Origin: a virus
Lineage: Duplodnaviria > Caudoviricetes
DNA length: 64,000 nucleotides
Virus record (IMG/VR): IMGVR_UViG_3300021400_000138
Span: 64,001-128,000 of that record
Direction: 5' to 3' (one strand)
The notes under the pieces were generated by a model. The model was not told the DNA's origin, made no database searches, and was given only the letters and a program-made list of their open reading frames with translations. Shown here one piece after another: positions 38,074 through 64,000 of the stretch; within the stretch, counting starts at the first letter, position 1; each line of letters opens with the position of its first letter. The position numbers and the translations under genes were made by a program.

Positions 38074-38409
38074 TTACTTTTCTTCAATCTTATCTTTGTC
38101 TTTATTGAAAATCTTATCAAGCTGAGTATAAGCGTATTTCTGCGCCGCATCAAATGTGGCCTATACCAGTCCACGAATAGTTTCTTTGGTAAAGATTACT
38201 CTCATTGGCGCAGGAATTTTATCAAAAATAAATGAGACCACAAACTCTTGTTTGATAGATCCAGCCTTCATTACCGAGGAGTATTCCATCTCAGCTTCAC
38301 AAATTTTTTCTTGCGCCATTTCAATAATGTTGGTGCGGGTTTTAAGATAAACGACAATAAATCCAAGTAAAATCCATGCGATATTCAGCAATACTGTTCC
38401 AATATTCAT
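38074..38409 (-). CDS. holin-like protein (111 aa with TAG=Gln)
   Basis: Single N-terminal TM helix. One TAG (38161) reads through to TAA 38074. Confidence 0.65.
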
Positions 38410-38422
38410 AAATCATTCCTCC

Positions 38423-38941
38423 TTAATACGTTGGAAATCCACTTTCAAGATATTCCGCATAGCGTTTCTTTATATATGCAATAGCAAGATCAACCTGTCC
38501 ATTTTCTAAATGATTTTCTACCAAAATCTTTTCATACTTGTCATATGTGGAAAGAATATGATCGAAATTTTCTTTGGAGTAATCCCGTTTTTGACATGCG
38601 TTACCAAAATCAAGTATCTCATATCTCATGCGTTCAATCTTGTCATCCAACATTGATTTCTTTATTCCATCAAGAGCGTCCATAATATTAGTTTGAAACT
38701 TTTTCATTTCTTCGTGATCAGATTCCTAGAGCTATTTAAGTTCTTGAGTCTCTTCTTCAATTTTATTAATCTTTTCACTCTACTCCTTTTCTCTCCGAGA
38801 TGCATTGGTACTAATACCAAACCTCTCTTTAAAATAGTCAAACAACTTAACAATCAACTAAAAAAATAACAACGCCGCCAAAATGGTAACAATAATTTCA
38901 CCTTTGTTACCAACAGATAATAATTGATTTAGCTCATCCAT
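38423..38941 (-). CDS. holin-like membrane/coiled-coil lysis-module protein (172 aa with TAG=Gln)
   Basis: AAGGAG RBS, ATG 38941 and a TM helix. Four in-frame TAGs (38858, 38780, 38732, 38726) precede the 94-aa fragment in the ORF track. Confidence 0.7.
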
Positions 38942-39018
38942 GACTCACTCCTTTCTAGACTTTACAATAAGTTAATTCCTTTTACTCAATATGATAAATT
39001 AAGAAATTAAATAACTTC

Positions 39019-39555: not shown

Positions 39556-39585
39556 AATTAATTCTCCTTTTTATTTCATAATAAT

Positions 39586-40509: not shown

Positions 40510-40541
40510 ATATTCTCACCTCCTAATCATTGGTTGTCTTA

Positions 40542-41129: not shown

Positions 41130-41491
41130 GGAGTAATATCCTCCTTTTCTATGCGTTTTATAACAGGAATGGTATTTTTGGCAATTGTATTTTCTATATT
41201 TCCTTTCTTAAGAAATACAAATAAATTAATGTCATTCCCTTCTTTTAACAAATCATTAGGAATTTTTGTTTTTACTGTATTTTTATTTAACGTTGATGTG
41301 GCAACCGTAGCCTTTTTACTATTTTTTGTCCAAAAATGAATTTCAATTTCAATATTTTCAATTTCGGAAAGGACAGTGAATTTATTCTCTGGTTTTAATA
41401 CGATAATAATTTCTTGATTTTTATCCCATTGATATAGGTATTCTAGTTTTTCACCTGATAATTTTTTGATAATACAATCCAAAGTATTCAC
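41126..41491 (-). CDS. hypothetical virion protein
   Basis: LYQWDKNQ...IHFW...IPNDLL...IPVIKR motif common in Firmicutes phage tail proteins. Confidence 0.6.
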   Translation of the reverse strand: MNTLDCIIKKLSGEKLEYLYQWDKNQEIIIVLKPENKFTVLSEIENIEIEIHFWTKNSKKATVATSTLNKNTVKTKIPNDLLKEGNDINLFVFLKKGNIENTIAKNTIPVIKRIEKEDITP

Positions 41492-41500: not shown

Positions 41501-43033
41501 TTATTTTAGATTATTTCCCACCATAAAGCCTGTGGTTCCCTGATAAGATACTTTATACCAGGTTTGTCCCGCAGAATTCTTGACCTTTTCAAGGGCGGTA
41601 AGTTTATCTCCTTTGCCAAGTGTAAGTAGAATAGTATATGTTTTATCCGTGCCATTACGGATATATCCGGGGGACTTTTTGATTGTCATGGTTTTTGGAT
41701 ATTCGGGTTTAGTTGAATTGATAACTTCTATAATCTTATTCCAAGTAATCGGACCAACAACTGAATCTTGATCAAGATAATGCTTCTGCTGAAATCTTCT
41801 CACGGCACTAGCCGTTAATTCCCCGAAATCTCCATCAACATCAAGATCCTCACCAAGTTGATTCAGATACTTTTGAAGTTTTTCAACATAAGAACCTTCA
41901 GAACCCTTCTTGAGAAGAGGATATGAATCCACAATATTTTCTGATGGGAGAGGAATAGAAGCGGAACTCCCAGAATCCGAAGCTACAGAAGAGCCACTAA
42001 CAAGCGCAGCTTTAAAAGCATTCCATTTGTTTTCGTTATAATCCGGTCCAATAGTTGGTATCCAACCTGAAACTCCTGGGCAATTTTTACCGCTTACGTT
42101 CCAATGCCTAATAACGTTTTCAATTGGAATATTATATTCTTTCATTAAATATTTTGTAAGTTTAATAAGATTTTGAATAGTCTTTTCTTTAAAATGCCAT
42201 CCAGAAGAATCTTGATAACAACAAGTTTCAATGCCCATAGAATTGCTATTCATACAAATTCTAAAATGACTTCCGCCAGCGCCACCATAATAAGAATCTC
42301 CGCAATGCCAACTATAATATTTTCTTGGATTTGGATTATATTCGCAAATGTCATTTTCATCAACAAAATAATCTGCGGAAGCAGATCTATCGCCTCCATT
42401 AAAATAAGATATATTGTTACGAGCTGTGCCAGAACTAGCCGTATAATGAATTACAATATACTTTGGTTGTACACCTCTGGTAGATACATTACATCCCTGG
42501 AAACCAGTATTTCTTACGATATTAATAGATTCTTCATCTTTTTTATTTTTATCTGGATCAATAACCACAGTGTCATATTTTGTCAGTCCATAAGTAGTAA
42601 TAACTCTATATACATTCTCAACATAATCCAGAGAAGTTGCATATCCATCGGCACGAATAAGTTCAAGATATCTATGAGGATCTATTACGCCTTTAAGATT
42701 TGCGTAATTGCTCGTATTAATGAACTGAAAATACCCCTCAACACCTTTCTCCATATTTTTAAAAGCGTACCATTGATCAGTAATTTTATAATACGACCCG
42801 TCAGCGTTCTGCTCTGCGGAACCATCAACAAATGTCCCATCATTACAGGATACTCTTCCTGGTCTGTATTTGAGTCCAAAATAATTATGATGTTGTGCTT
42901 TTGAAGAAGTACCAAAGGCGGATTCTAAACAAGCTTGCGCTATGATTGGCGAGGCTACTTCGATTCCATATTTTGGCCCGATCTTCTAAACATATGGAGC
43001 GATTTTCTAAATGAAATCAGTTTGTTTACTCAT
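41501..43033 (-). CDS. endolysin: GH73 glucosaminidase + Amidase_2 + PG-binding + SH3-like (510 aa with TAG=Gln)
   Basis: AAAGGA RBS and ATG 43033, with TAG at codons 9 and 16. IIAQACLES..G, NYFGLK and GYATS (GH73); IVIHYT, SWHCG, GIE, IRHW..SGKNCP (amidase); VDGDFG..T..AVRRFQ (PG-binding). Confidence 0.9.
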
Positions 43034-43074: not shown

Positions 43075-46000
43075 TTAAGCCCCTTCTTTTGATAACAGTT
43101 TTATTTGTTTCCTAAGTTTTTCGTTTTCTTCTTCGAGAGCGCGGATTCTGTGTTCATGATCTTGGACTACGGGAATGGTAAGCATTTGAAGTTCGGTGTA
43201 GTTAACAGAGTACATATCATTTTTTTCGTCATAAGAAACAAGACTCAAATTTTCGCAATTATATTTTTCCATTAATTTTTTTAATGTCTATGCTCCAATA
43301 CCTAAATGATGCCTTTTATCATTTATTCCAAGATGGTTTTTCCAAGTAAATTCTATTGGATTCAAGGACATAAATAAATCTTTATGATCAATTGAACCTT
43401 TTATATCTTTGTATCTTTCATCAGAACTATGGTTTGTGGAAATAGCATACACATATCCGTTCCATGTAGAATAAAATGAATAAGATGAACCTTGATTATT
43501 CCATTGTCTAACAATTCCAAATGCAACATCATTATCAGCTCCTGGATTTGTTTCACACATACTAATCCATCCATGACAAAGACTATAAATACTACCTACC
43601 CATCCATGTCCATATTTATTAGCTATAACGCCACCGTCCCATTTCACAGTAAATCTTTCCGATGAAATAACATTATTACTATAAATAGTATTTTTTAACC
43701 ATACCTAAATAGCATTAGCTCCAGAATCTTGTGAATAACCTTGACCGACACTTACATATCCGTTTATACCGCTGGCGTCCCTTTTCTCAGAAACTAATTC
43801 ACCCGAGCATTTAATATTTCCAGCATTCATTATTTCCCACCAACATGCAGATTTACCAACGTTATATCCATTTCCGCCCGTCATACCTTGAGCCGCATCA
43901 ATATAATAGCCAGTTCCTAATCTATTAAAACTAGTTTTATCTCTGTTATGCATTATATCTGGAAAATTTGTAACTTTCAATGATCCAACTTCTAACTAAC
44001 CTTTTATATAAGAATTCCCCGTCTATGTATTTACCCAAAACATACTTTCAAAACTATCTTCATTATAATACTGTCTAGTCATTCCCAAATTAGCCTAATC
44101 ATATGATAAATAATTATAATAATATCCATCAACACTAACACTTCTTAGCGCAATACCGCCTGGAACAATCCTTGTAGCATAAGTCATTTTATCTTTTGAG
44201 TCATGTCTTAATGAAATATTCCCAGGTGTCCAACCATCTACTACACATTGGAAATAAAATCTATTATCATCTGTTCCGATAGCCAAAGAATTGGGTGCCT
44301 TTTCTGAAGTATCTTTACTGGTTGTATCAAGAATATCTCCATTTTCATAATATAAAGAAGAATCACTAATATTTAAGCTACCAATTACTCCACCTTTTGC
44401 CGTTAATATACCTGAACTATTTACTTTAAACTTATCTGTAATACTTATTCCGTTTACACCAATATATGCTGACCCACCAGTTGCACTTCCCCAATTCTCA
44501 TTGTTTCTATATATAGCTGTATCTTTTACTGTCCAGCCACCAATTTCTGCAATTGTATCTGATGTTTGTTTTTCACGGACAACTATATTTTTAAATATAG
44601 TGGCCAATAACTAATCTTTATCAGAATCATCTACATATATATATAAACGATAATATACGGCATTACTTGGTGGATTTTTTATATAAAACTAGTCTTTAAT
44701 TGTTGCATAGCTTGCTGTTTGAGTTCCGGATAAAGAGCAAGATGATCCATTGCCTACTGTCTTAAGAAACTCATAATTTCTATCATATAAATCCATCTAG
44801 AAGTGCAAACTATATGATTTATAAGTAATATTTTCAGGGTGGTGATAACGAACATAATCAAAACTAGCCGAAAAATTCTATTGTCGATTATCGAATTTTT
44901 TAAATCGAGTTAAAAATATTCGTTGTACTATCGCTCCACTCGTTGTCGTTCTTTGTGATGTTGATAATGGTATAAGCGTTCTATATGCTTTGTCATTAGG
45001 TACGACTACACCAGTTGATTCCCAATCATCAATAGTTTGATTATATGCATCATCTTTAGTTTCATCAACTTCAACCATATTTACCCCTAATCCAACTGCT
45101 ATTTTATCAGCAGTAAGCGTCCCAGTAATATGAGCAGCATCCACCTCAAGAAAACCTTTATTTATAGAGCATCCACCTATTTCCCCGCTTGAAGCAAATA
45201 TTTCACCCCATATAATCGCGTTTGCCGCTCGTAAAGTTCCATCACTTGATACCTTAAAACCAGTTGCACCCTCTGTTGGTTCTTCTCCAACTTTACCGTC
45301 TTTGGCAATATATATGGTTAAATTTGGTTTATTAAGTAAATCCGAGTAATCACCAGATGTTGCAATCGGAGAAAAACTCGTCCAAAGACCTTTTATATTT
45401 CTAAATAGAGTTCTAGCTAAATTTTCTGATGAATTAGCATAAAATAACAATCTATAATACTTGCAATCAGACGTATAATTAGTTAAAGTTATAGTTGCAG
45501 ACATCGATTTATCGGCGCTTATACTTGGATCGATATTCATGATTACGGAATTTGTTGCCTGCAATTTTTGCTTATTTTCATTATAGTAGTATATATAAGC
45601 AGTAAGCGTATATGAATTAGGGTTCCTTAAAGTAGTTGCGATATAATCAAAACTAATTTCTATTGTATCATTTACACTAAAATGTCCTGGCTTTAAAACG
45701 GACAAATATACTCTGTTAACAGAGTTGTTGATTTCCATATAAGTATCATCAAAATAATCATATTTTGACCAATTACTATCAACTTTTGTATTTCCATAAT
45801 TAGTTTTATTTTCACCAACGTCCACAAGAGATGAAATAATATTATCTGACGTAATAACCCCTGGAAAAGTTACTCCAGGAGATACTGTTAATGACGTTGC
45901 ATTGATTGCTCCTGATACAACTGCATCATTACAATATAACTTTCCATTAGTAGTAACACCAAATTGATTAGATATAGTCATCATCCAATCTTCATTAACC

Positions 46001-49000
46001 GTTGTGTCACCAAAAGTCATAGTTGAAGTGCTGCCTTTTGGTTTAATAAATGCCGAACCATTTATTCCTGGAGTAGAGCTTTTGTAATATATCTTTTCTT
46101 CATCTATTACCCATCCGCCTAGTTCACCAGATAATGCATGTATATCACCAATAAAATACGCGTCGCCACCCTTAATACCAAAATTAGGAGTAAAAAAGTT
46201 ACCCGTTTCCAAATCTAAAAAGCTTCCTGTTATTGAGAAATTTCCCGCAGGAGTTTCTTCACCATCGTTTGCTCCTGCTTTATAATTTCGAGACATAATA
46301 GCATTAGTAGCTAACGATCTAGATAAAATCGTATCTGTTTCAATTAATCCGCCTTTAATTGTTGTTGTTTTATCTTGCGCAGTTGTTGACCAATTATCAA
46401 CAATATCTTTTGCAGTAATTATATCCGTTCCGTTATTATATATCCAATCATGATAGTCACTTTCGCCACCAGATCTTACAGTAGATGCATTGCGTGGTGG
46501 AACATATAAATAAGCATCAACAATTTTTCCTTCTGAACCTGATTCAACGAATTGTCCCAAAACTATATCTCGTTCTTCGTTCCATAACCATGTACCTCTA
46601 ATATTATTCGGCGTAGGAGTTACCGCATATTTCCATCCGTCTTTATACCAAACCATATATAATGTGCCATTATCTGCATCTTTATTGGTTAAACGGAGTA
46701 CTAAATATATGGTTTTCCAATATGGTGGTACAATATTTGGATCTATCATTGTTTTACTAACATTTATTTTTCTTGTATTCCAGTACACGTATCCATCTAC
46801 ATCTGCTGCATTTCCATCTTCGTCATATCCATGTAAATAGCATTCACCAAAGTTTTCGGCCTCAAACGAAGAATGATTTATTTTCATACCTAAGCCAATG
46901 TCAATCTTTTCATTTGCCAAAGCCGCACTATCTTGTGCATCAATTATTTCCTATTGTGCGTCCTCAGCAAGACCATGAAAAGTTACCAATCCATAAAGAT
47001 TAATGTGATCCGCAACAAGTTGGCCAACCCTATCTGTGAGAGTAAATGTAGTAGAGGTGCCAGTTCCGTTATTTCCAATGATCCATGAAAATTTATTAGC
47101 TGTTTGTTGTGCTATGCTTTTTATTGAACTACTTTTATTTCCAAGTATATCTTCCGAGATAATTCGAGTATGTTCTGAAGCGGTATCAGTAACTTCTTGA
47201 ACTCGCCTAGCAATATCCTTTACTTCAGTGCCATCTGCTTTGGTCCTTACTGTGGAACTAATATCTGAAATATTTGTTTTTATTCCATCTACATTTTGTT
47301 CCATCTCGGTAACACGATCTCTAATCTGTTTTGCAGTACTACCATCATATTCGTTTACATAATTTGTAATATCACTTTGCCATACTTTATTAGTTATTTG
47401 TTTTTCAACTTCATCAACCAGTGATATAACACCACCAATGATTGTCTCACAATATGCCTCAGAATACAGTACACTCGTGTCGCTCATGATATTCTCGAAT
47501 CGTTTCCATAGATATTCACCAGAATATAATTCTTCTGGTTCTGTATATGACCATACTCCACCAATTAATTCAGTATCCGAAGTAGAAATATAAAACTATT
47601 GCATTTGTCTAACTATATACGTACCATCTTTTCCATCTTTGCCATTTACTCCGTTTTTGCTAATCGTATATGCAACAGTTTCTTCACCGTCAGTAAAAAT
47701 AAATTTTACTCTCGTCCACAAATAAAGTCCTTCTGGAATATTCTGCGGAATTTCTGTACTCCATACTGAGTCGATAAATATATTATTCTCATCTAATAAT
47801 ACATCGTCACCATCTGTAAAAGCTCCACCAGGAATAACCGTATCAGAATCTGATAATGCGTATTCAACTATATATTCTTTGATTCCATTTCCAACAGTTC
47901 CATCATTAACAATCGGTATGGTTTGATAATCTAATATCTATTCAGCTCCGCCAGCTTCATATAACGAAATTCTCAATGCCATAATTTGATGATCTTTATC
48001 TGTAACAGGAGTTATAAATTCATGATTCGATTCATCTTCTTCTGAAATATAATTTTCTGTCCAGTTTTCATTATCCAACGTTGATTCAATTTTAAAACGG
48101 CCTTTATATAATTCCATATTTCCGCTTCCAACTTGCTTGTAAGCCTGGCTGGTTACTGTTGGTGGATTATATTGTCCATCCCATGTTCTACTGATTATTG
48201 CACTTGAAAGAAGCAATGTATAAACAGTGGTACTTTCGCCAGCCAATGTAAGCGAATAACTGAATTGTTTATTGAATGTCTTATCATCAATTGTACATGG
48301 GATAGTAAGCACACCACTTCTTGAAACCATCTCATTTGTAACATTTACTTTAAATGAAGCATCTATTGTACCATTATTAAATATTGAGGTTGTCATTCCA
48401 ACTGGACATCCAGTTATTGTACCAATTGTTACTTTTTGTTGTACAGTGCCTTTATATCCAATAACATTACAAGTAGTATTTGCTGCAATAGCTGCCGATG
48501 TATCTCCAGAAAAGGTATGAGATTCATTACTCAAAACAATAGTATAACCATCCGTTCCATCATCGCCCCTATCACCATAAACACCTATAATTACAGGTGT
48601 TGTCGTCGATGTTTCTCCGTCAGTATATTCTATTACTTCATAATTCCAAAGATATTTATTTGTATTTGTAACCGTTTGAATTGTTGTAGTCCATCCTGAG
48701 GTAGAAGTAGTTATTTCAGAATTTTCCGTGGTAGCTAAATAGTATTCTATAATTGCTGAAATTCCTTTTCCTGAATTTCCTTGTTCTCCCCATACACCAA
48801 TTACAACCTTATCAGTAGTTGCGGTTGATCCGTCCGTATATGTTACGAGTTCATAATTCCAAAGAAATCTATTCGTAGCCGTCATGGCTGGAATTGAAGA
48901 CCCGGTAGAAAACTCACTATCTTTTGGAGTACTAGTAGATGATTTATTAACAGCATAATATTCCGTAACGGAGGCAATACCAATACCATCGGATAAAACA

Positions 49001-51393
49001 GGAATTACTTGCTGATCAACCAGTGTAGTCATCCCTCCAGCAAGATACAAACTACATTTAACAGATTTTATACCGTTTGGTATTGTAAATGTATAAGATG
49101 ATTCATTACTTTTAGAAGAATAACCACTTGTCCACGTAGAATTGTCGGAAGACACATCAATTTTAAATCTTCCAGAATAGTCAGATAATTGCCCGTCGCC
49201 CCGTTGACTTTTTGCATGAAGAAGAATGGTTGCGGGATTATATTGTCCATTATCTTGTAAAACTATAGCAGCGTGTGAAATCGTTAAGGAATAACTAGTA
49301 GCAGCATCTCCTTTATCACCCTTGATCGCCAAAGAATAACTAAATTGCTTATTAATCGTACGTCCATCTATAGTTACCGGAATATTTAAAACACCATTAC
49401 GAGTATTCATAGATGTTGTAACTGTAACCGTAAATAATGCAGAGGTACTATTATTATTTGAAATAGCAACAGTCATGCCTGTTGGACATCCAGTAATTTC
49501 TCCAATTGTAACATCCTATTGTATAGCTCCTTTATAACCAATAACATTACAAGTTGTACTTCCGCTAACAGCCGCAGATGTTCCACCAGAAAAAGTATGA
49601 GATTCATTGCTAAGAATTACAGTATATGCATCTTCTCCTTGTTCTCCATATGTTCCTATAATTACTGGTGTAGTAGTATCTGCATCACCAGTTGTATAAT
49701 TAATTATCTCATAGTTCCATAAATACTTTTTTTCCGGTGTTATTGTTTGTATCGTAGTTGTCCATCCACTTGTAGCCGTTGTAACATCAGAGCTTTCAGA
49801 CGTAGCAAGATAACACTCTGTAATAGATTCAATTCCTCGTCCTTCACTTCCATCTGCTCCAAATACGCCTATAACCACTTTATCTGTTCTGTCTATATGT
49901 CCATCAGTATATGTAACTTCTTCATAATTCCACAGATATTTATTGGTTTCACTCATAGTTGGAATTGTTGTATCAAAACTCGCATCGGTTGGTGCAGCAG
50001 AAGAGGAGTTGTTAACCGCATAATATTCTATTACGGAAGAAATACCTATACCATCTGTAATTATCGGTACAGTTTGTTGATCAAGAAGAGTAGATGTTCC
50101 TTCAGCCATATATAAACTAACACGTATAGATTTTATTCCCTTTGATATTTTAAACGTCGTATTTGATTCATTAGAAGTTGAAACATACTTTTCTGCCCAT
50201 GAAGAATTATCCTACGTTGTTTCAATCTTAAATCTCCCATTATAATCCTGTAATGTATTATTGCCTTGTTGATATTTAGCAGATATAATAATACTACCTG
50301 GATTAAAATTTCCCACAGAATCAAGTACTACAGCAGCATGAGATATTTGCATAGAATAAGATATTGCAGAATCGCCATGAACACCAATAATAATTGGTTC
50401 TGTTGAATCATATTCTCCAGTAGAATATTTAATTGTTTCATAATTCCACAAATATTTTAATGTTTCAGATATTGGCTGCGGGATTTCTGTCCATCCCGTT
50501 GTGTCTATTGTTATTCCTGTTGATTGCGTTGATGCAAGATAATAATTTTTTATACTTTCAATAGATCTTCCATCTTCACTATACATTCCTATGATATGTT
50601 TCTCTGTTGCCACAATTGATCCATCAGAATAATCTACTATTTCATAATTCCATAAACACCTATTTTGATTATCTAATTCTGGAATAGTAGTTGTGAACAT
50701 TTTATCTTCTGGCATAATAGAAATAGAAGTAGAAACAGCATACATTTCTGTAATATTATTAATACCATTACCAGGAGCGCCGTTAAATGAAAGAGAATAT
50801 GTGAATAATTTTTCGAATGTAAGATCTCCAACAGTTATTGGAATGGTTAGCGTACCATTTTTTGTAATCATTTCTTGTGTTACGCTTACCATAAATTTTG
50901 AATTTAATGTTCCATTATTTTGAATCATTACGGTCATTCCCGCTGGCATGCCAGTAATTTCTCCAATAGTTGCCGGAACTTTGTTTCCCCCTTGATACGC
51001 ATAAACATTACATACCGTTGAACTTTCAATTGCTGAAAGATAAGAAGCTGGGAATGTATGATTTTCATTTGATAAAATGATAGTAAACGGATTTTCTCCA
51101 TTTCTTGAAACATTATATGAAACTGTTGATGTCCCATCCGTATAATATGTTGTTGTTCTTATCCATAACCATTCGCCAGCAGATGTTGTCGGAATTTCTG
51201 TAGACCATATTCCAGAATATAATGGATTACCCTCTGTATCTAATAATACGTTTCCTTCATCATCGGTTATAAAAGTTCCTGGTATAATTGTCCCAGAATT
51301 AGAAACCGCATATTCTACTACGGTTCTTAATATACCAACACCAGATTCACCATCATTAACATTTAATAAATCTATCCAACTTACAGAAAGCAT
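43075..51393 (-). CDS. giant tail fibre/host-recognition protein with a C-terminal peptidase S74 chaperone (~2,772 aa with TAG=Gln)
   Basis: GGAGGTG RBS. Nine track fragments share one frame, separated by TAG (>=14). Internal tandem repeats. SSDERYK...GIGA*T...VNYTEL plus coiled coil at the C-terminus. Confidence 0.85.
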
Positions 51394-51423
51394 GATATTC
51401 ACCTCCTCTCAAAATGATGTATC

Positions 51424-53934
51424 TCATTCTTCACTCACCTCACAAATAAATAACATACGACCATTAATAATACTTGGATCTACATATATTACCCGTTGTG
51501 TTTTATACGGGGCAGACGTATCTAATAAATCACCATTTGAATTTCTTCTATAGTATCTATAAACTAAAGAATCTGTTTCTGTGGCATTTCCCCAAGATGA
51601 TCCAGAATACTTTTTTAATACACATGTTTTATTCGTTCTATCTAAGTGATAATAAAAATCTCCAGAAACTGGATTAACTGGTGGAGTTTCGCTAAATATT
51701 GTAGATTTAATTGGATCAACTTCTTCATTATTTCTATATATTCTACAATATATTGCCCCACAACCACTATTATTTTTGAATTCCGGAACAGAACAAAATG
51801 TATAACTTACATATGGATCCGCGAGATCGTCAACTGTAAAATATGCTTCATAAGTAGTACCATTATATATCGCACTTGCTTTAAAGAACGCTAAATCATC
51901 GACCATATCTGCCGTAACAACTAAAGATGTTTCTGTAGCTTCAGGGATATCAGTATAATTACCACTAGAAAATTTTGACCACTGTACTGATGATGGAGTA
52001 ACAGTACTTGCACCAGATACCATTCGAATTTTTAGTGTTGTCGTTCCACTTGAATTTCTTATTATTCCACCGTCTTCTGAATATATTTGAAGAATACAAG
52101 AACTGGTACCATCAACAGCTTTATTATTTTTTGTCCATGTATATTTTTGTTCAACAGTTTGATATTGTCCATTATATTCACCACGTAATGCTATTGTTAT
52201 CTGACCAGACATTAAGGAAGCATTACCAAAATTTGCTCCATTTGCTACTTTAAGAATCAATGTTCCATCTGCACTAGTCGTTCCAGCAGTATTTGTGCTT
52301 ACTGTTACTCCACCAGGGAGTGCTCCCGAACTAACCGTAGCAGTAACTGGAATTCTGGTTATTCCAGAATAAGCATAAAATGGAATAGTTAAATATTTTT
52401 CAGTTGCAGAAAGACCATTACTTGTACACGGAATGACATCTTGATAATTACCAAGACCCATAGAAATACCTGGGGTTCCATCGTCTCCATCTTGGCCTGA
52501 TTTCCCATCTCTACTAATTACGATAGTTTGTTCATCTAGCACAATTGATGAACTGCTTGCAGCATATAATGTACATTTGATATTTTTAATAGAATTCGAA
52601 GTCGGAGTGTATGTTGTACTATGTTCATTTACGGTAGAAGAGTAAGCAGTAGTATAGTTTTCTCCATCCGTTGATACAGAAATAATATATTTTCCTTCAT
52701 AATTAGATTTAACTAATTCTTCTCCTGTTTTACTAAAAGCGGAAAATGTAACAGATGTCGGATTGAATACACCAGATTCATTTAAATTCATTACATATGT
52801 ACTTGCTTCCAAGTTATATATTACAGCATCTTTACCATCAACACCAGCTTTTACTTTTGTTACAGTAAATCGTTTTGAAATTGTATCAAAACCTTTTTTA
52901 CATATAAAATCTACATAACCAACGTCACTCGTTAACGAACTTACAGTATAAGTAAGCGGAGTACTTCCGTCAGCATGAAAATCAACATAACCGCCAGACA
53001 TACCATCACTTTCTGTATATGTTATCGCCCAATCTCCATCAAATGTGACGTCAGTACCACCGTCATAAATGTGAATTTCTGTTGAAGCACTTGCATATGA
53101 CAATACTCTGCCATTTCCATCTGCTGGAACATAAGTACTTTCATTTGTTAAACTACATACAATATTGGAATCACCAGCCGCACCATCATATACTTTCACT
53201 ATTTGATGGATATCATAAACAGAAGAATCAGTAGTAGTTAATTTAATTGTTGCTACACGATCATTCCAGATATTTGTTTCTGTAGCGTAAACATTAAGCG
53301 TTCCCGAAGAATTTGATGAATTATTACCTTCTGTCACTGGGAAGGCAACAAAATTTCCATTTGAATTTTTATACTGCCATTGACTAACACTTACATTTGC
53401 TATATCAGCAGTTAATATTATCCTATTTGGTCCGACTATATTTCTTTCAGAATTATATAAAAAGGTTGTCTCGCCAGTAATATATGCATATTTAACTTCT
53501 GACGCCATTGACAAAAGAGTAAAACTTAATACTGCTTCAGTAGAAATCGGCACTCCCGTTTCTGGATCTGTGTATGTTGCACTGCATATATAAGTCAATT
53601 GCTTACTTGGAATTCCGGCCAATTTATTAGCCGAAACTGTTAATATATTTCCAGATACTGATTCGCCAGTTTCCAATTGTGAACTTTCTCCTGATCCTTC
53701 CTTTCTTTTAAATACAACATTCAATCCAATTGCATTAAGCGCAACGTTCGTACCATTATAAGTAATTACTGGTGTTATTACTAAATTATCCGTTGCCCAG
53801 TTTGGCGTATATGTTGAAGTATTTGGATCATATACAACGCTCGTGGGCTAAGTACTAGTTAAATACAATCCTAACTATCCAACATCTGTATAGTCAATTA
53901 CTGAGACACTAGAAAAACTTTGAATTTTAGACAA
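51424..53934 (-). CDS. tail protein with Ig-like beta repeats (836 aa with TAG=Gln)
   Basis: GGAGGTG RBS and TTG 53934. Two TAGs near the N-terminus, then the 766-aa open fragment. S/T/G-rich, and shares repeat types with the next gene. Confidence 0.8.
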
Positions 53935-53950: not shown

Positions 53951-56900
53951 TTACGTTGTAGCTATAGTTTCTCCATCTACCTCAAATTTACACCGGAAAT
54001 TTGCATTAATGTGTACATCATCTCCGGTTATAATAATTGTTTTAGTTCCAGATGCATGTCGAATATTCCACTAAGTATCACCATCTGCATCTTTTGATTG
54101 CCGTGTCCATGTGAAATACTCAGCGTCCCATTCATCTGTTACATCTATGTTATTTTTAAATAGTTTTGCAGTTAATGTAATATTGTTTCCCCGTAAGTTT
54201 GTTCCGTTTGGTGTTTCAATAAACAGATCATACGTTGAGATATCATCAAGATCAGATCGTAGATTTTTAATATAATTATTTGTACTATCTTTAAATTCTG
54301 TATATTCCACACCAAATTTTCCATTACCTGTATATATTTGTTCTATAGATACAGTATCACCTTGTTTCATGACATTAAAAGCCAGTCGATCTTCCGATAT
54401 TGTTCCTTGTGAAATCATATTATTTATTATTAATCCATCAGCAATTGCATCAGAAGTTATTCCACTTGGATCAATAATTGTTGCCCCCTATTCATTTCTA
54501 AGGATAAGAGACGGCTAGTTATTTGTTGCATATCCTAATTGTACTCCCACGTAATCATTTCCCTAGCTATCCTTACCCATTATCTATAAAGCAGATCCGT
54601 TCATAATGAGCTAACCGTTTTCTGAAAGAATACGCATATTATCACTAATCGTAATATCCGAGGCAGCAAGATCGGATACTGTTATTTTACCAGCCACGGC
54701 TTCTTTAATGTATGCATCATTAATTACAGTTGTAGCAGAAGTAGAAGTGAATGTTTGCAAGCTTTTAAAGAATGCGGATTCCGATGTAATTAATTCGGAA
54801 TTAACTATATCAATATTAGCCAATGATGCCTCGATTTCGTCAGCCTATACTGCATGAGCAACAACAAGATTTGATTCTAGATAATCGATAAAAGCAGTAT
54901 CAGCCAAAAGACTAAAGTCATCAGCGTTATCAAGTTCTACAAGTCCAGCTACTATCTATTCACCAGTAACTTTTGTGGCTTCAATCACGCCAGAATTAAG
55001 ATGTTGTATAAAAGCAGAATTTACATCCAATCCATCAAAATCGCCTTTTTCTGCTTCGACAAGCTTAGCAATAACATTGTCCGTGGTGATTGTGCCTTCC
55101 GCAATGGTTGTAATTGTATCTGTCCCTATCCGAAGAACCTCCGCCACATCAATTTGATCCGCCCGTATATTCGCTGTAGAAATTGTATCTTCGGTAATTT
55201 TAGTAATCCCTTCTTCGCCGACCGTAATAACTTTTGCTGCAAGGTTATCAATAATACCTTCTTCCGCATTAACCAATTGTGACACAATAACTTTAGCACC
55301 CAAGTATTCGGTAAACATTTCTTCAAAATCTGCACGTTCACCTTTTATATTTTTAACGTGAATTACGCCAGGTTCAAGCTATGTTATTCCGAGATAATCA
55401 GCTATCATACTATTAATTGTTATTGGATCAACTGGGCCAGTAATACCTCCGGCAATTCCACCAACCGCCTAAGTAAATATAGAATTTTTTGTTAGAACAT
55501 TTAATAGAGAAGAAACATATTCCTGGTCACTTTTAGAATTACCAATTCCTATTGAAATAGAATTCTTAGATCCCCGATTGTTTTCTGTGTTTAATAACTA
55601 TGTTAAATCAGATCTACCAGAACTATTGGTAATCATACTTGAAAATTCAATAGACAAATTCGGATCAATTTCACAAGGATTATAAGTATATCCCATGATT
55701 CTTAATTTTACAGAATAATCATCTCTGATACCAACTCTTATAAAACTTAATAAATCAAAATCATCATGCCATGCTTTGAATTCTGGAATACGCAGAAGAT
55801 TATCAAGATCAACCGTGAAATTATACTATGGCTGACTTACTTCAGATAATTTATCTTTTGCGTCATCAAATAACTCTTTTTCTCTATCTATCGTAGTATA
55901 AGCCGTATCAATAGATGTAGTAAGAATATTTGAATTTGTATAATCTGTATCATGATATAAATTTGTAATTAAGTTTATTTCATTTTCAGTAAAAAATACT
56001 ATTCTTGTTTTTGCTGTTCCTATGGCTGATTTCTAACAGCCAAGTTTCATTAGTTCAACCCAGTTTAATCTCTCTTGATTTTTTACATTATATTGTTGCT
56101 GTAATGCATTTAATTCATCTTGAAGCTGTTTTAATTTATATTTTATTGTACCTGGTGTAGTATTATTTCCAATTGCATTTTCATAATGAACATACATATT
56201 ATGTCCAGCCTGATTATAATTATCTTCATTTGCATATTTTACTTTTCCGTATTCCTCTTCAGCTAATTCACTCCATGGTTTTTTAAAATCACTTAGAGAT
56301 ATAAGCTTGTCTTCATATTCTTCCAACTTGCCCTATAACTCTATCAAGCCATAAAGTTCCCAGTTTTCTGTTGCATCATTTTCTGGTTTCCTTTTTTCTC
56401 TATTTGGTTTATTAAGATTATCAAGAGCAAGTTCAATGTATGGAATAATATAATTTATAATTTCAATATAAGTATAATATCCGCCATACTAATCAATTAC
56501 AGCATAATATTTATTAAGATACCAATCATGATCTACTTGTCCATTTTTCTTCACTGGATTATACTATTGGGCTTCTGTTCCATAATTAATATATTTTTCA
56601 CTATTACTGCGGTCATCTATTGCAATTTGTAATGACTCTAAAAGAGATCTATAATAACCTAAGTTCTCATTCAATCCCTCTTCATTCATATTAGACCAGT
56701 TTTTCCAATATGATTCATCCGACGGAGTCTTATATTTCTTATCAATTATTTTTTCATTTAGCGACGTAACCTCTTTAGATAAATTCGCATAAGTTTCACG
56801 ATTAGCATCTCTAAAAGCATAATAATCTCGAATCTTCTATGCCAAGGATTCTTCCATATATGGTTCACCAAGGAAGTAGGAGAGATCATCATATCTTTCA

Positions 56901-57703
56901 TCATCATAGTTCCAATCACGAATAGTTAAATCGTTATCTCCACGTATACGAAATCTCGTAAAAATAGAATCTTCATTTACAGATATATTTACACTTTTTG
57001 CAAGATTTCTAAATCCAATAAATATACCAGTATCTATATCTAACGCATTTCTGGAATGAGCATTAATTTTACAATGTAGAAAATCAAATGTGAATAAGAT
57101 GCCAAGTCTTGGCCCAACTTCTGTAGTTAAAATTGCATACAAGTTTGAATTCTCTAAAGAAATATTCGGCACTTTCAATATTTCCATAATTCTATCAAAT
57201 TCACCTATGCTCCAGAAGGACATTTTACTAAGAATAATATCCAGGAGAGATAACTCTTTATTTGCATTAACTACTGTGACATAATTTTTAGCAAATCCAA
57301 GTTCGTTAACATTATTAGATGCCAAATATTCTAATGAATCGCTTTCTCCTGTATTTACCTTAAATCCAAGCCAATCCTTATCTTCAAATTCCTTCTCTGC
57401 GGAATAAGCCGTTACTGTTTTGTACTCCTCGTTACCATCGTATTGTTGAGTAGGAGCCTATATTTGAAAATAACCTATTTCATCAATAAACAAATACATA
57501 TAGGCTTTAAGATCTTCATAACCAGCAGATACAACTTGCTAACCATCGACAACAATAAAACGATCTACGTCAAACGATAATTCTGAATAATCCTTTACTT
57601 GTTTATGCAGCTCAACTGTTTCTGTACGAACACCATTTAATGCATACAAAACTTGCCTATCTGGGGTGCATAAATAAATAATCTTTACATCTTGAATCAT
57701 CAT
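53951..57703 (-). CDS. Tal-like tail tip/baseplate hub protein (~1,250 aa with TAG=Gln)
   Basis: ATG overlaps the Dit stop. Five track fragments share one frame and each ends in TAG. Ends at TAA 53951. Position directly after Dit. Confidence 0.75.
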
Positions 57704-58560
57704 ATCAACCAACCACCAACCTTTTTATATGGGGCATAATATGAGATTTCTAATGCAACATCTCCTTCGAGAACTAATGTATTATTCCCCGGTAATAATC
57801 TAAGCCAATAAATATCACCGACATCTCCCCATCCAAGATCTTTATATTTTACTATATCCAAATCAACCTAATGATTAATTCCTTGCATATATTCCCTAAC
57901 CATACATCTCTGACAATCAATTACAAAAGTAACAAGAGATCTACTGGTAGTTACTTGCATAAATTTATTATCATCGGTTACATTTGTTAATTTAAATGAT
58001 GATGTTGAGCTGCGAATTTTTCCCGTTACTTTAAACTCCGGATAAACATATTCCTCATACTCATTTGTTTTACAATTAATTACAAAACGCGTAGTAGAAG
58101 AGTAACCACTTGCATCTACATTGCTATAATTGTATTTCTCATATACATATGCATATGATCCATTCACTTGAAAAGTAAATGTACACAATATAAAACCGTT
58201 TACTCCAACAGTCCATTCCGTTGTTATAAACTTTCCAAAATATGAATAAGAATCCCCAGTACAATCAGTTATTTTTAATTCGGATGAAAATCGTGGTGAT
58301 GTTAGCCACGATTCAACTATAACCTGTTCCTATACAGTAAAATCAGTATCATCAGATTTCATTAAACTATATGTGAACTGTAAATGCTCTTTCTAAACTC
58401 CATATTCATTGATTATTGGCTTCGATGCCGTAATCTCTCCGCCTAGATTCGTTCTTGTAATACCTGGAACCGTATCAACAACAGTTCCGGAAACAATTAA
58501 TAATGGAACACCAATAATATTTTCTGTTGACTTATCATAATATTCAAATTTTGCCGTCAT
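57700..58560 (-). CDS. distal tail protein (Dit)-like (286 aa with TAG=Gln)
   Basis: AAGGAGG RBS. TAGs at 58393, 58330 and 57868. ESWLTSP, YVYPEFKV and WLRLLPGNNTL motifs. Follows the tape measure gene. Confidence 0.8.
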
Positions 58561-58614: not shown

Positions 58615-61600
58615 TTATCTTGCTCTGCCAGATTTTCGTAAATCTTTTGCCTGCTCTGAATTCACATAATTTACAATATTATTTAAAAACTTTCTGTTCT
58701 TTGCAAGATCTGATGCAACTTGTTGAATCTTATCAAGAGTAGATTCATCTACGTTTCCATTGACTGTTATTAAGCTGCTAATGTTTACGTTATTTGTTGC
58801 AGTATTATTTGCAATATTCTTTATAACTTCTGCTTGTTCTTGGTACTTCTTAAGTAATTCACTATTTGCATTCATTATGTAATCACGTTCATCGTTACTG
58901 GAGAATAAATCCGCATTTGATTCTATTGGTTTTAATGTACCAAATGATGTTTCTAAATAACCTTTAGAGTCTTCGTATTTTTGTATCTCTGAACGGATAT
59001 TATCCATTTGCTCTTTCGCTTGTTCGATATATTTATTAAGACTATCCTATATGTTATTATTATTTTCTGTATTTTCAATCTTAGCCTATTTTATCTGATC
59101 AACTATTTCTTCAATCTGATTATTTGCATTCTCATAAGAATTAACAATTCTATCAGTGTTTGCATCTATATTTGCCGGGATTTGTCTAATTGGAACAACT
59201 AATGATTCTATTTGGTTCTCTGTTGTTTTAAATCCATTATCAACCACGGAAACAATGTCTAGAACATGTTTTTCTATTTCTCCATCTTTCATTGCCATTC
59301 CAAGATTCATAAGTCCTTTTGTAATATCGGTTGGAATAACTCCTTCGCCACCAGAAAATGGCATAAATGTTCCTCTTCCTGTTGTTATAATCTCAGGGCC
59401 TTTTTCCCAAATTTGAGCAATACCAGGAGCGGCGGAAAGAGTACCTTTTGCATATCTTCTGTATGATATACCAGAAAGACCGCCTTTTGATTTCCAATAA
59501 TCATACGAATAATTCATTTGCTTTTTGATTGAAGAGGTATCAATTTTAGACTTATTCGCATTCCAATTTGAAATTACATTTTTTTGAGTGCCGTTTGCTC
59601 CACCCTATGCTGTAAGCTTCTTTCTATTAACAACAGCGTCCGCAGCTTCTTGTGCAGTGTTGAATCCTAAAACACTTCTGAAATTCTTTAATGCCATATC
59701 AGTTATAAGGTCTAATATATTTTGAAGTGATGTACCATCTTTAGTCCACCCTTTTACATTTACTTCTTGTCTTTCACTAGATGTTTTGGAAGCAGTAGTA
59801 ATTATTCCAGATCTGCCTCCCGAACTACCTGAACCACTTGATCCGCCTGAACCAAAACCACTTCCACTAAATAAACCGCCTCCTGAACCAGGTCCACCAG
59901 TACTAACGACACGAACAGTATTCGCAGCGGAATTAATAATATTCGCGCTATTTGAAGTCGGCTTAATATAAGAAGTGGAAGCCAAATGACTTTCAGATTG
60001 TTGCTGAACAGCTACATCTTTTGCTTGAATTGCCTAGATAACCCTATCAATATTCGTGGATATTGCACTTGCTGTACGTTCTGGAATACCATTTGTTATT
60101 TCTGAAAATCCATCTTTTATTGCCGTCATTGCGTTTGCGCCGTTTTCAAGAGTTGCCTTATTTGCGGTATAATCCCTGATTGCACTTGCAACTTTCTCTG
60201 TTTCTTGTTGGACGGCTCCAGTAATTGTTCCAATTTTTTCAGCTTCTGAAGCAGAAAGATTATCATAATAATGAACCATTTTTTCCGCAGCTGCCTCAAG
60301 TTGATCTTTATTCGGAATAGCTGTGGTATTTTCATGCTGAAGACTCTCAACGCCAACTAATGCCGAATTTAATGTGGGTGAGAACGTTTTAAGCCATGTA
60401 TCGATTCCAGCATTTGTTGCGGTTAAATATTTCTCCAGTCCAGTTGACAAATCATTTATTGTTCCAACAACACTGTCTGTATTAATCTTTAAATCTTTTA
60501 TAATGTTTTCGTAATTCTCATTTAAGTCATCACTAAGTTCACTAAGACCTTCAATCCGCATATCATATACATGTTGTTTTACAGTTTCATCAAGATCATC
60601 TTGAGATTCAGAAAGTCGAGCTTCAAGACGAGCTTTCTGGGCTTTTGATTCTGCATCTGTACATTTATCTTTACATAGTTCGCTACACTATGCCGTACTT
60701 TTGTACGCTCATGCTTTCACATGAGATGAGACTATATCACCTATGCATTAAATACATAGTCTACCATTTTGAATTACCAAACGCTTGCAATCCTACGAAG
60801 CTACACTCATCGCTTCTAGTCGTTGAACTTTATCCTATTCGGATCTTAGCTGCTGGTTGCCCAATATTTATTATTTTCAAACTTTCGCACCTGTACATAT
60901 TTCATTACTATGCTGTAGTTAATAAATCTCTAAGGGTTTTCCAGACAATTAGATAAAACGCCCTACATTTAAGGCCTTCCAGTGCGCGAATCTATTGCTG
61001 TATTAACTGTATATCTTTTGTTTTCGTTTTAAGTTGCCTGTCATAATCATACATCTCTTTTTGTTTCTGAAGTGCTTCTTGCCTTGCTTTTATTAATTCT
61101 TGAATATAACTAATTTCTTGTTTATACCTAGATGTATAAATAGAAATAATCTTCATTCTATAGCTATTTGCATCTTGTAATTCTTTTCTCGTAGAATCAG
61201 TAATTTCTTCTCTCTTCTTAAGATATTCTTCTGCCGAATATGAAGAATCATTTCTCCACCTTTCTTCATTAATTCTATATTCTTCTTGATACTTATTAAG
61301 TGCCTATAATGAACGTGTATATCCACTCATTGCGGCTTCTGCTGTGGCGAGACCGAACTGTGTATATTCTCCATCATCTGTAAAATACATATCTTCCGAG
61401 AACATGCCAACCAGCTCGTCCAAACTATCACGAAGTTTATTTACCTTGGCTATATATTCTTCGATTGGCTTAAAGTATAATACTTCACGAGATTCATCTC
61501 TTAATTTGTCAATTGTAATAATAGTATCATTCATTTTGTTTTGTAATTCATAAAGTTCATTTTGTGCCGTTCTATATTCTTCAGAATCTTCTCCGAGAGA

Positions 61601-64000
61601 AACACCAATTTCCGCCAATAACTATGATTGAACCTCCATGGACTTCTTCATATTATTATATGATTGATCAATATTATCAATCTGTGCCTAATAATTTTGG
61701 GAGAGGGTAGTAGTATCAGTTATAAGATTTCCATTTGCATCCATGCTACGACCAAGTTCATCAATAGTTTCACGAACTTTTTGATATGTATCCGCAAGCT
61801 TTTCATTATTTTCATATAATGATCTGTAATAATCGCCAGCATTTGAAAATTCTTTTGGATAAAGCGTTGCCATTGATTGAGCAAGTTCTCCTATTTTTTG
61901 CTTATTATTTTCTGTTTCTTTATCTAATAAATCTGTTACAGTTTTAAGTTCGCCAGCTTTTGTTTCTAGATTTTCAATATATGCATTCCACTGGTTAATA
62001 TAACTATATACCCATCCATTTAAATTTCCAGGTAATGTAGAAGTATCAATTTTTGTTCTATTTCTAACGGCATCAATGCCAGCCTTTTGAAGAGCAGGAT
62101 TATTCTAAATATTTGTTATTGCTCCCATATATTTTCCAGCATAAGCGTCAACCTTCTTCACATAAGAATCATAACCCTTTTGTGCTTTTTCCATTTCCGC
62201 ATTTAATTTAATTATAGTTTCATTTGAAACCTTTGTTTCTTCTTTTATTTTTTCAAGTTCGGTCTCAAGATATCTATTTGCTCCAACATATGTTTCACTC
62301 GCATTATAATAATTAGAATTCTGTATAGCCTCGCTTAAATCTTTAGATAAATTTTTACTCTTTGCGCTACCAAATGTTCTACTAGAAACATTATAATTAG
62401 ATTGCGCAGAAGCAGCCGCTAACTATGCGTATATAGATTGTTGCCCACGAGTACCAATATTGTTTCCTATTTGAGTAACGGATTGATACTTCTTTGCAAT
62501 CTGATTAAGCTTTTCTTCTGCCTGTTTAACGGGAATATTTGCGAACTCTTCATTAAGATCATGAACTTTTGATCGAGCGGAAACATACTCATTTTCTACG
62601 TTGATTATTTGAGTCATTGCTTTGCGATATTCTTCTGAACCATAACTGATTCTTCCTTGCGTCATATTAACTTCAAGTTCTTCTCTTAATCTTACGGCTT
62701 CTATTCTCAACTTATCTGCTTGTTGTTTATATCTGTTCATTTCCTTAGAATAGCTTTGTGCAATCTATGTGCCGTCCTCAAGATAAGAGCCTGTTTTTAT
62801 AATATAATCACGAGTTGTTGCCAAACTATTGGCTAAAGTTGCTTGCCAATCAGAAAGAGATTTATAATAATTATCAATATTATCCATTTTATCAAATACT
62901 GATTGAACTAAAGATTGCGCATATTCCGCAGCAGATTGGTTAGCTTTTTCAAATTGCTCATTCATTTTTTCTTGGGCTTCTGTTACTGCGCTTGACAATG
63001 CATTTGCTTCAGCCAAACACTGATTATAATAAGCAATTTTATCTGCGTACATACCAAATTGAGAAGCATCAAGGAAATCTCCATTTTGTAAAGCATCAAA
63101 TACATAACTTGGGAGCATTAATCCATTAAATGAATTTTTCGCTCCATTTAATCTGCTGTTAGCCGTTCTGGATTGACTCTTTAAATCATTGTAATTAATT
63201 TTGGACTGTTGATATGCAGCATTATTCTCATTTACTTGTGAACTCAAATTAAGTAGACTCTTTTCAATTTGATAATTAATTGACTCATATGTTTTTCCGT
63301 AAGATTTGATTAATTTCTTTGCTTGACTGCCACCAAATATCCCGGACAATACTTCATTAAGTTTATTAATTCCAGATTGTCCAGTCATAGTAGATATAAA
63401 AGAATTAATACTTTGCATCGAGTTCTAGAGTTTACTAATAGCCTTTTCAAGATCTTCAAATGGAAGATTAATCATATCACTGTAAAGACTACGAAGCTGA
63501 TTTGATAAAGTCTAAATTTGATTAGAAGCATTTATAGCATTATCTGTTAATTGCATATACTGTTGGGCGGCTTCATATAAGGCTTTGCCATGATCGGTAG
63601 ATGTATCAATCTGGTCAATTCTAAAAGCTCCATTTCTAAGATCTTCCAAATTTATTTCATTAGCAAGACTAACCGAATACTCTAATTGAGTTGATTGTAC
63701 AACTTTTAATTGATGTTGAAGATCATTAACCTAATTTTGTAACCATCTGTAATAATCGTTATCTCGATCACTTCCCATAGCGTTCATAGCGTTCTGATAG
63801 TCCGCTAATGCATACTACAAGTTCTTTTCAGCGTTTTTGTCAGTGGCGTAATATTTGTGATCAAATGCCTCTTTTATTGCCTCCTGTGTATACGTTGTAG
63901 CCGCTTTTGAATTAGCCCATAATTCCTAACTAATAGCATTGATTTCACTTCCTATGAGTTGTTTCTTGGTTGCGGTATCAACATATTGTGTAATTTTGTC
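58615..64000 (-). CDS. tape measure protein, 3' part (exons >64000-60972 and 60661-58615; TAG=Gln)
   Basis: Long helical A/E/K/Q-rich frame with >=16 in-frame TAGs. YAKGT...EKGPEII motif near the C-terminus. Lies upstream of Dit. Confidence 0.85.
60662..60971 (-). ncRNA. group I self-splicing intron (310 nt, no homing endonuclease ORF)
   Basis: P1 with a U.G pair at the 5' splice site, P10, GTTCAACGACTA and GATATAGTCT P7 elements, terminal G. Excision restores ...ALEGL-TDAESK. Confidence 0.9.

Follow-up and report, generated by a model that had tools for sequence, protein, structure and literature searches.

The DNA analysed here (hereafter, the window) is a 64,000-nt stretch of a tailed phage (Duplodnaviria; Caudoviricetes), corresponding to bases 64,001–128,000 of the IMG/VR record IMGVR_UViG_3300021400_000138. 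The explanation that we consider very probable as a whole is that the window covers the 3'-terminal third of the late genes (virion and lysis) in a complete, SPbeta-related, siphovirus-like phage of 185 kb, and that TAG is read as glutamine in this late block (genetic code 15). The evidence comprises the distribution of TAG codons in the genome, the residues found at TAG positions in related phages, and a tRNA with the anticodon CUA, tRNA(CUA), encoded in the same block. Positions given below are those of the window, unless designated as genome positions or preceded by a locus name.

The phage genome is represented by a single contig of 185,390 bp, the ends of which overlap by ~107 bp, and was classified by IMG/VR as a complete virus with direct terminal repeats. 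Its GC content is ~33%, and the GC skew changes sign at 38 kb, where the coding strand switches. The sequence is present in public animal gut metagenome runs, no RNA run being listed among the runs that contain it, and a megablast search with 20 kb of the late block against INPHARED gave no matches. A Lachnospiraceae-type member of the gut Clostridia is the probable host: the domain architecture of the endolysin and its nearest matches indicate a Gram-positive, Clostridia-type host, and Lachnospiraceae contain homologs of both the integrase and the portal protein.

Distribution of in-frame TAG codons

Open reading frames (ORFs) of the window were read with TAG as a sense codon, and the early and late gene sets were compared genome-wide. 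Under code 11, the minus strand from 38,074 onwards is a mosaic of short ORFs. With TAG as sense, 13 long, tightly packed minus-strand ORFs extend from this position to the end of the window and contain 65 in-frame TAGs, 10 of the 13 carrying at least one. The original prediction, made from the sequence without database searches, had counted more than 50 TAGs in nine genes; the count holds, but the number of genes was too low. As it had also stated, every restored late ORF is terminated by TAA or TGA (13 of 13 in the window), and strong ribosome-binding sites are mostly present at the restored starts, i.e. Shine–Dalgarno (SD) sites of 6–7 nt precede 8 of the 13 starts versus 1 of the 22 internal fragments called under code 11. 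The statement that every break on this strand is an in-frame TAG was correct except at 60,562–60,904, where the break is not a TAG because a group I intron lies there in the tape-measure gene.

Coding density was calculated as the greedy ORF cover of the whole genome under each code, yielding 0.843 for code 11, 0.927 with TAG as sense, and 0.854 with TGA as sense. The entire gain obtained with TAG falls in the genome segment of 102–185 kb, and the density of the late region rises from ~0.7 to ~0.98 (0.97–1.0) with TAG as sense only. The comparison of code 11 with code 15 thus gave the gain that the original prediction implied, and in the late region alone.

Fragmentation under code 11 would also be expected of a decaying or defective phage whose late genes had been pseudogenised by damage. 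The frames are, however, broken by TAG alone and not by TAA or TGA stops or frameshifts, the sole non-TAG break is the group I intron, and density reaches 0.97–1.0 once TAG is read as sense. Furthermore, the TAG codons of the phage are shared with, or exchanged for CAA or CAG in, five relatives, and the genome is complete, has terminal repeats, and encodes the cognate tRNA. The probability of damage as the explanation is negligible.

In the late block (genome 102–183 kb; 49 ORFs, each of at least 80 amino acids (aa)), 192 in-frame TAGs were found in 23,696 codons (8.1 per 1000), whereas the 106 plus-strand early ORFs contain 20 in 19,942 codons (1.0 per 1000), most of which are artefacts from 5' extension of the ORFs. 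Out-of-frame TAG counts are alike in the two sets (329/274 in early and 468/406 in late ORFs), and the contrast therefore reflects selection on the reading frame, not base composition. Termination by TAG is found in 7 of the 136 early ORFs called under code 11, and in six of these seven an in-frame TAA or TGA follows 2–11 codons further. The six early ORFs with such a second stop are located at the following genome positions:

12,489-12,761
30,749-31,540
51,351-51,881
82,802-83,089
85,960-86,250
94,620-94,886

These TAA and TGA codons look like back-up stops, with which readthrough after a code switch would add few residues to the six proteins. TAG is also absent from ~15 'middle' genes, which occupy the minus strand upstream of the late block (from 11.6 kb of the genome, across the origin, to 183 kb), and from the plus-strand genes for an NAD-dependent ligase, NrdD, a PolC-type DNA polymerase III alpha subunit, a tyrosine integrase, and a GmrSD_N-like protein. 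The absence of internal TAGs from ligA, nrdD, and int, which had been pointed out previously, was verified at 953–2,878, 27,984–29,942, and 35,394–36,617, respectively.

The TAG-free early genes would have to reflect something other than a switch if the host itself read TAG as glutamine. However, no bacterium is known to use code 15. The 106 early ORFs avoid in-frame TAG despite normal out-of-frame counts, as translation under the standard code predicts, and the phage brings its own tRNA(CUA). In addition, standard-code relatives of the portal family are located in Lachnospiraceae and Clostridia assemblies, and standard-code Firmicutes or Bacteroidetes hosts were predicted for phages recoded in this manner by Borges et al. 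(bioRxiv 10.1101/2021.08.26.457843; Nat Microbiol 2022). A code-15 host is thus highly unlikely, and a standard-code host combined with a recoded late block is the preferred reading.

Amino acid at TAG positions

Circularity was avoided by comparing the phage at the DNA level with five IMG/VR relatives, which were collected through the portal protein (portals 67–92% identical). At the TAG positions of the phage, these relatives carry CAA, CAG, and TAG 34, 14, and 32 times, respectively, the other residues being Asn (14), Ser (11), Glu (9), Asp (9), and Lys (7). In the reverse comparison, the phage carries Gln at 40 of the 129 TAG positions of the relatives. Gln is the commonest residue at 24 of the 67 TAG sites covered by sense codons in the relatives, compared with a background of 3.4% (p ~1e-18), in line with the enrichment at TAG columns that the original prediction had anticipated. 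Because CAA outnumbers CAG, this signal lies at the level of the amino acid and does not arise from one-step mutation between TAG and CAG.

Three TAG sites of the window were compared with standard-code cultured phages, and all three correspond to Gln. Both endolysin TAGs have Gln as their counterpart in the enzyme of Butyrivibrio phage Arawn, and the position of the TAG in the S74 chaperone motif (43,288–43,290) is occupied by an invariant Gln in Clostridium phage Amboise and two Escherichia coli phages (tblastn against cultured phages). The two internal alignments on which the glutamine assignment had originally been based are indeed present, namely the tail repeat GYKGAIQ*DVTIGEITGCP versus GYKGTVQQKVTIGTITGCP, with the TAG at 49,516–49,518, and the S74 motif HLGIGA*, with the TAG at 43,288–43,290. 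Among 118 homologs of the portal protein, Gln is the commonest residue at five of eight TAG columns; these columns were given less weight, since some database proteins may have been translated with TAG as Q. Self-comparison of the late proteins for paralogous columns at TAG yielded three sites only and was uninformative, and a search of PDB sequences with the S74 end of the fibre gave no match.

In a codon-by-codon table against the relatives, no codon besides TAG departs from the standard code. A reassignment of CGG to Gly was considered and rejected, as CGG aligns with Arg.

Suppressor tRNA

The gene for tRNA(CUA) was detected by both ARAGORN and Rfam (46 bits) on the minus strand at genome position c159,771-159,866 (L006:19771-19866), within the late block and 31.8 kb past the end of the window. 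The original prediction had named such a tRNA, RF2, GlnRS, or an RF1 inhibitor as genes to look for in the rest of the genome; the tRNA was found, but the phage genome contains neither a release factor (PF00472) nor a Glu/Gln synthetase (PF00749). Homologous suppressor tRNAs are present in the relatives. The tRNA gene lies on the same strand as the recoded genes and is preceded by a terminator-like hairpin, and it may be co-transcribed with the late genes. Rfam gave no match to a theta (hepatitis delta virus-like) ribozyme downstream of the tRNA (cf. Kienbeck et al. 2024).

The tRNA is 96 nt in length and has a 23-nt extra arm and A73. A long extra arm is a feature of bacterial Ser, Leu, and Tyr tRNAs. 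The variable region of the phage tRNA carries a second hairpin of 19 nt, the 7-nt loop of which (CUCUGAA) copies the anticodon loop of tRNA-Gln; the corresponding loops in relatives are UUUUGAG, UUCUGAG, or GUCUGAU. An alignment of seven such tRNAs revealed a covarying extra-arm stem and a loop with invariant U, U, G, and A and with C or U at the wobble-like position. IMG/VR was then searched in a manner blind to the motif, i.e. for the anticodon loop followed by 24–42 nt and the T loop. In this sample, YUGA was present at the apex of the arm in 19 of 21 distinct long-arm tRNA(CUA) sequences, and YUGA occurred anywhere in the arm in 4 of 39 long-arm Ser, Leu, or Tyr tRNAs. Among 24 distinct tRNA(CUA) sequences with long or short arms, 21 have G73 and nearly all have a weak or mismatched 1–72 pair, as does tRNA-Gln; the phage copy departs from most of them in its A73. 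Every locus carrying a surveyed tRNA(CUA) gains coding density under code 15.

These features raise the possibility, which we put forward tentatively and at somewhat less than even probability, that Gln identity is built into the suppressor tRNA, the CUA arm reading UAG and the spare YUG arm signalling to the Gln-charging enzyme of the host. Such an arrangement would explain why these phages need no synthetase of their own. No paper describing a spare Gln-anticodon hairpin was found in the literature. A search for glnS (TIGR00440) in 31 genomes of the order to which the only bacterial relative belongs, which is probably not the order of the host, gave only sub-threshold matches resembling glutamyl-tRNA synthetase and thus carries little weight as to the route of charging.

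The length of the tRNA, its extra arm, and A73 might alternatively be taken to indicate that TAG specifies another amino acid (Ser, Leu, or Tyr, as the class-II-like arm would suggest, or Trp or Glu), and Asn, Ser, Glu, and Asp do occur at TAG columns. Of the 67 sites, however, 24 have Gln as the top residue, and the alternatives lead at far fewer (Ser, 5; Leu, 2; Tyr, 2; Trp, 1; Glu, 6); CAA is more than twice as frequent as CAG at TAG sites; and Q is invariant in the S74 motif and present at both positions in the Arawn endolysin. Moreover, since the loop of the extra arm is a copy of the Gln anticodon loop, the arm does not resemble those of Ser, Leu, or Tyr tRNAs. Any other assignment of TAG is accordingly very improbable, and Gln remains the preferred assignment.

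Several other tRNA genes were observed. The suppressor tRNA(CUA) genes of two relatives, G001 (L010:11671-11960) and G011 (L142:409-693), contain inserts of ~195 nt in the anticodon loop, which are presumably small group I introns, and ARAGORN misreads the anticodons of both. The phage encodes a tRNA-Gln(UUG)-like gene on the plus strand (L003:2021-2166; genome 42,021–42,166) with U1–A72, G73, and a tRNA-like insert of 66–67 nt in the anticodon loop, and this insert itself scores as a tRNA (Rfam, 36.8 bits). A tRNA with the anticodon UAU (Ile, reading AUA; L003:6502-6576, plus strand) scores 51.6 bits in Rfam and was missed by ARAGORN; tRNA-Leu(UAA) and tRNA-Pro(UGG) are also encoded. A 412-kb IMG/VR contig carries a long-arm tRNA(CUA) without the Gln-like loop (L231:8838-8923), having instead a GAAA loop, G1–C72, A73, and a class-II-type D arm; it may be an amber suppressor that genuinely derives from a Ser, Leu, or Tyr tRNA.

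Late genes of the window and the tape-measure intron

The recoded segment of the window, all on the minus strand, contains the following features:

38074..38409, minus strand: last late gene, 111 aa, one TAG (codon 83); phrog_15303; N-terminal hydrophobic segment; SD sequence AAGGAGG
38423..38941, minus strand: candidate membrane protein, 172 aa, four TAGs among nine Gln-type codons
39019..41491, minus strand: four small late genes of 178, 307, 195, and 121 aa, TAGs (three) being present in the 307-aa gene only
41501..43033, minus strand: endolysin with glucosaminidase, amidase_2, PG_binding_1, and SH3_3 domains (Pfam, PHROGs)
43075..51402, minus strand: tail fibre, 2775 aa, 14 TAGs, with an internal repeat and a C-terminal Peptidase_S74 chaperone domain (Pfam, PHROGs)
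51424..53934, minus strand: tail protein, 836 aa, two TAGs; phrog_3267, E 1e-44
53951..57712, minus strand: minor tail protein, 1253 aa, 19 TAGs (40% of its Gln-type codons); phrog_6211, weak YOMG_N match
57700..58560, minus strand: late protein, 286 aa, three TAGs
58615..60561, minus strand: putative downstream exon of the tape-measure gene, 648-aa ORF, four TAGs
60708..60982, minus strand: group I intron in the tape-measure gene; RF00028, 51 bits (gathering score 50), E 6.9e-12
60983..64000, minus strand: upstream exon of the tape-measure gene, part of a 4354-aa ORF extending to genome position 137,969, with 13 TAGs in the window and 32 in total; phrog_4211

An N-terminal hydrophobic segment was found in two of the six small late proteins, and the 111-aa product is a holin-like candidate. 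The endolysin TAGs are located at codons 9 and 16 after the likely ATG (43,007–43,009 and 42,986–42,988, respectively). The 1253-aa tail protein has no close relatives in IMG/VR.

The two ORFs assigned to the tape-measure gene are separated by a 343-nt gap (60,562–60,904), and an apparent TAA stop at 60,905 lies within the group I intron. Of the two ORFs flanking the intron, the upstream one alone matches the tape-measure family. The intron escaped a scan of the whole window with Rfam in E-value mode, owing to a filter effect, and was detected by a targeted scan. Elsewhere in the genome, a further group I intron was identified in the head-gene region (L007:6436-6781, minus strand, 59 bits), together with a skipping-rope RNA (L007:10369-10437, minus strand, 43.5 bits) and a twister-P5 ribozyme (L001:15925-15997, plus strand, 40.1 bits). 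A GC-rich hairpin (GGGGTAGGA...TCCTACCCC) is situated at 38006-38031, exactly where the plus- and minus-strand blocks converge, and is probably a bidirectional terminator.

Integrase, attachment region and lifestyle

The plus-strand early block ends with the following features:

35394..36617, plus strand: tyrosine integrase, 407 aa, TAG-free, penultimate gene of the block; Pfam Phage_integrase (PF00589), E 3e-21
36618..37004, no strand assigned: intergenic region, which the original prediction had taken for attP, with a 19-nt direct repeat at 36,672 and 36,737 and a terminator-like hairpin at 36,842–36,893
37005..38000, plus strand: GmrSD_N (DUF262)-like protein, 331 aa, TAG-free, last plus-strand gene; Pfam GmrSD_N, E 6e-14

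The phage had been described as temperate, with an intact attP. The integrase is real and TAG-free and the int/lysis layout is a typical one, but the searches described below gave no attB, repressor, or integrated copy in support of this description. If the phage were temperate, the TAG-laden virion and lysis genes of a standard-code lysogen might be translationally locked until a suppressor tRNA appears, providing a safeguard or switch for lysogeny. Several features point in this direction. More than 1600 homologs of the integrase were found at ~55% identity; some of them are annotated as site-specific integrases in Acetatifactor and Blautia, and several originate from Lachnospiraceae chromosomes, in which the family is abundant. 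The order of int, a non-coding gap, a defence-like gene, and converging lysis genes is typical of temperate phages and recurs beside a 91%-identical integrase; the GmrSD_N-like gene, possibly a defence moron, is kept in G001 and adjoins int in L283. A TAG-free recombinase of 400–440 aa is present in each of G001, G011, and G012, and G011 is listed as a provirus in IMG/VR. When 20 ORFs in the vicinity of the strand switch and int were tested, the only lysogeny-type match was to a P22_AR_N antirepressor-like domain, and recoded prophages with TAG-free integrases have been documented, together with the idea of a lysogeny switch, by Borges et al. (bioRxiv 10.1101/2021.08.26.457843).

Other results are less favourable to lysogeny. 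No tRNA-like core was found in the intergenic region, and a search for attB with 36,600–37,010 against one Clostridia genome gave AT-rich chance matches only. No Pfam helix-turn-helix or CI-type repressor match was obtained among the same 20 ORFs, and a set of 10 ORFs close to the strand switch and int had no Pfam match of any kind. In Logan contigs from four runs covering 33,000–41,000, one contig spans the whole stretch and no host junction was seen, although contigs of this kind cannot show absence; a related contig with the 91%-identical integrase likewise has a phage-form junction and no host junction. All of the contigs seen thus carry a circular or phage junction. A portal-profile scan of 185,579 bacterial species genomes gave one distant match, in a Clostridia metagenome-assembled genome (MAG), and neither G001 nor G003 has a sequence ortholog of the integrase. 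Finally, the suppressor tRNA has the same orientation as the late genes among which it lies, and leaky late transcription would therefore also produce the tRNA; a translational lock that operates independently of late transcription is not supported by this placement. A temperate lifestyle is plausible but unproven, and we regard its combination with a lysogenic lock as a doubtful, if possible, interpretation.

Two more tyrosine recombinases are encoded in the genome, at 157,275–158,309 (minus strand) and 36,751–37,722 (plus strand; both genome positions). The former is an Xer-like enzyme whose gene is part of the late block and contains two in-frame TAGs; the latter is encoded among the early genes and is conserved in both G001 and G003.

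Relatives and their genetic codes

The same strand-and-code architecture is found in G001, a complete genome of 205 kb. In the portal family, close relatives are TAG-recoded, and members at 35–42% identity mostly use the standard code, a few appearing to be TGA-recoded. Some distant members (L045-L049, L093, and L089) are denser with TGA as sense, and L089 has a tRNA(UCA). The portal family thus seems to hold standard-code, TAG-recoded, and TGA-recoded lineages. One standard-code member from a Lachnospiraceae MAG (L034) has Pfam matches to YonG, YonD, YonB, YomU, YomV, and YomW around its portal gene, i.e. to structural families of the SPbeta type. The TAG-recoded relative G011 contains, at ~130–150 kb (L150-L160), an internal 20-kb island of 47–52% GC within a genome of ~36% GC, with a recombinase gene at 132.8 kb.

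Comparison with known systems

Recoding of TAG to Gln and of TGA to Trp in structural and lysis genes was described by Borges et al. in eight clades of gut phages, including the Jade and Sapphire clades of ~200-kb Firmicutes phages (bioRxiv 10.1101/2021.08.26.457843), so that the original prediction was right in treating the phenomenon, including the idea of a prophage lock, as already published. Code 15 was confirmed by proteomics in crAss-like phages by Peters et al. 2022 (PMC9523058). The present phage is a clean, well-resolved complete example of this known phenomenon.

The phage resembles Jade and Sapphire in several respects: TAG stands for Gln, the recoding is concentrated in genes for structure and lysis, the early genes can be translated under the standard code, a suppressor tRNA is encoded by the phage itself, the genome is large (~185–215 kb in the phage and its relatives), the origin is animal gut, and the host is of the Firmicutes type. 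Approximately one-third of its ORFs contain an in-frame TAG, and close relatives differ in code, as in Jade and Sapphire. The likeness was drawn by size, host type, and recoded fraction; Jade and Sapphire are described as having several recoded modules, whereas the phage has one contiguous minus-strand late block. It also differs in having no 'code-change module' with a release factor or synthetase. A TAG-free integrase beside TAG-rich lytic genes is shared with the Garnet and Topaz prophages (Borges et al., Fig. 5), but these are 22–34 kb in size and integrated, with attachment sites in tRNA genes, whereas the phage is 185 kb, with no integrated copy or attB found in the searches above.

In crAss-like phages, TAG also specifies Gln in the late genes of a gut phage; these phages, however, are podovirus-like, infect Bacteroidota, lack an integrase, and have proteomic proof, whereas the present phage is known from its sequence alone. 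Similarity to the SPbeta-like large temperate siphoviruses of Firmicutes comprises, besides the families found in L034, the weak YOMG_N match in the 1253-aa protein, the very long tape-measure gene, and the PolC-type DNA polymerase III alpha subunit, and is at the level of family profiles only; SPbeta itself uses the standard code and a serine recombinase. With supE-type amber suppressors, i.e. tRNA-Gln in which CUG has been changed to CUA, the phage tRNA shares a CUA anticodon that inserts Gln, and most of the surveyed phage suppressors have G73, a weak 1–72 pair, and G2–C71, as does tRNA-Gln. It differs from supE in the additional 19-nt hairpin with a Gln-type anticodon loop and in A73.

Proposed mechanism and its implications

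The results document the recoding, the assignment of TAG to glutamine, the confinement of the recoding to late genes, and the tRNA, and we infer a standard-code host, a temporal switch, and a role in timing or safeguarding lysis. In the proposed mechanism, code 15 applies to the whole minus-strand block (genome 183 to 102 kb), with TAG as Gln and with TAA and TGA as the sole terminators, and tRNA(CUA) produced from the late block would decode TAG. Since the phage encodes no glutaminyl- or glutamyl-tRNA synthetase, a host enzyme presumably charges this tRNA. The early, replication, and ~15 middle genes could be translated by the host with the standard code because they are TAG-free. Tail, fibre, endolysin, and holin-like proteins could not be completed until the suppressor tRNA accumulates; without suppression, the endolysin would end after 8 residues.

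Several observations weigh against this explanation. The partition of TAG is not absolute, since 13 of the 49 late-block ORFs are TAG-free, and for the poorly conserved tail genes of the window, the relatives give Gln at 5 of 18 covered TAG sites. No convincing sigma-70 promoter was found in the region upstream of tRNA(CUA), which lies in the late block, and the tRNA may therefore appear only together with the late mRNAs. The recoding is deduced here from nucleotide sequence, and the standard code of the host is deduced from the avoidance of TAG in early genes and from the Lachnospiraceae homologs.

To the recoded phages already known, this example adds a large relative of SPbeta from gut Clostridia, the code-15 late genes of which form a single contiguous block and the early and middle genes of which are TAG-free. 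Its tape-measure gene would need both splicing and suppression. As standard gene callers shred the late genes, records of this kind need translation table 15. How the suppressor tRNA is charged without a phage synthetase was left open by Borges et al. (bioRxiv 10.1101/2021.08.26.457843); the spare Gln-anticodon hairpin, which is common to many TAG-recoded phages, makes this question testable with simple tRNA variants and could inspire the design of suppressor tRNAs.

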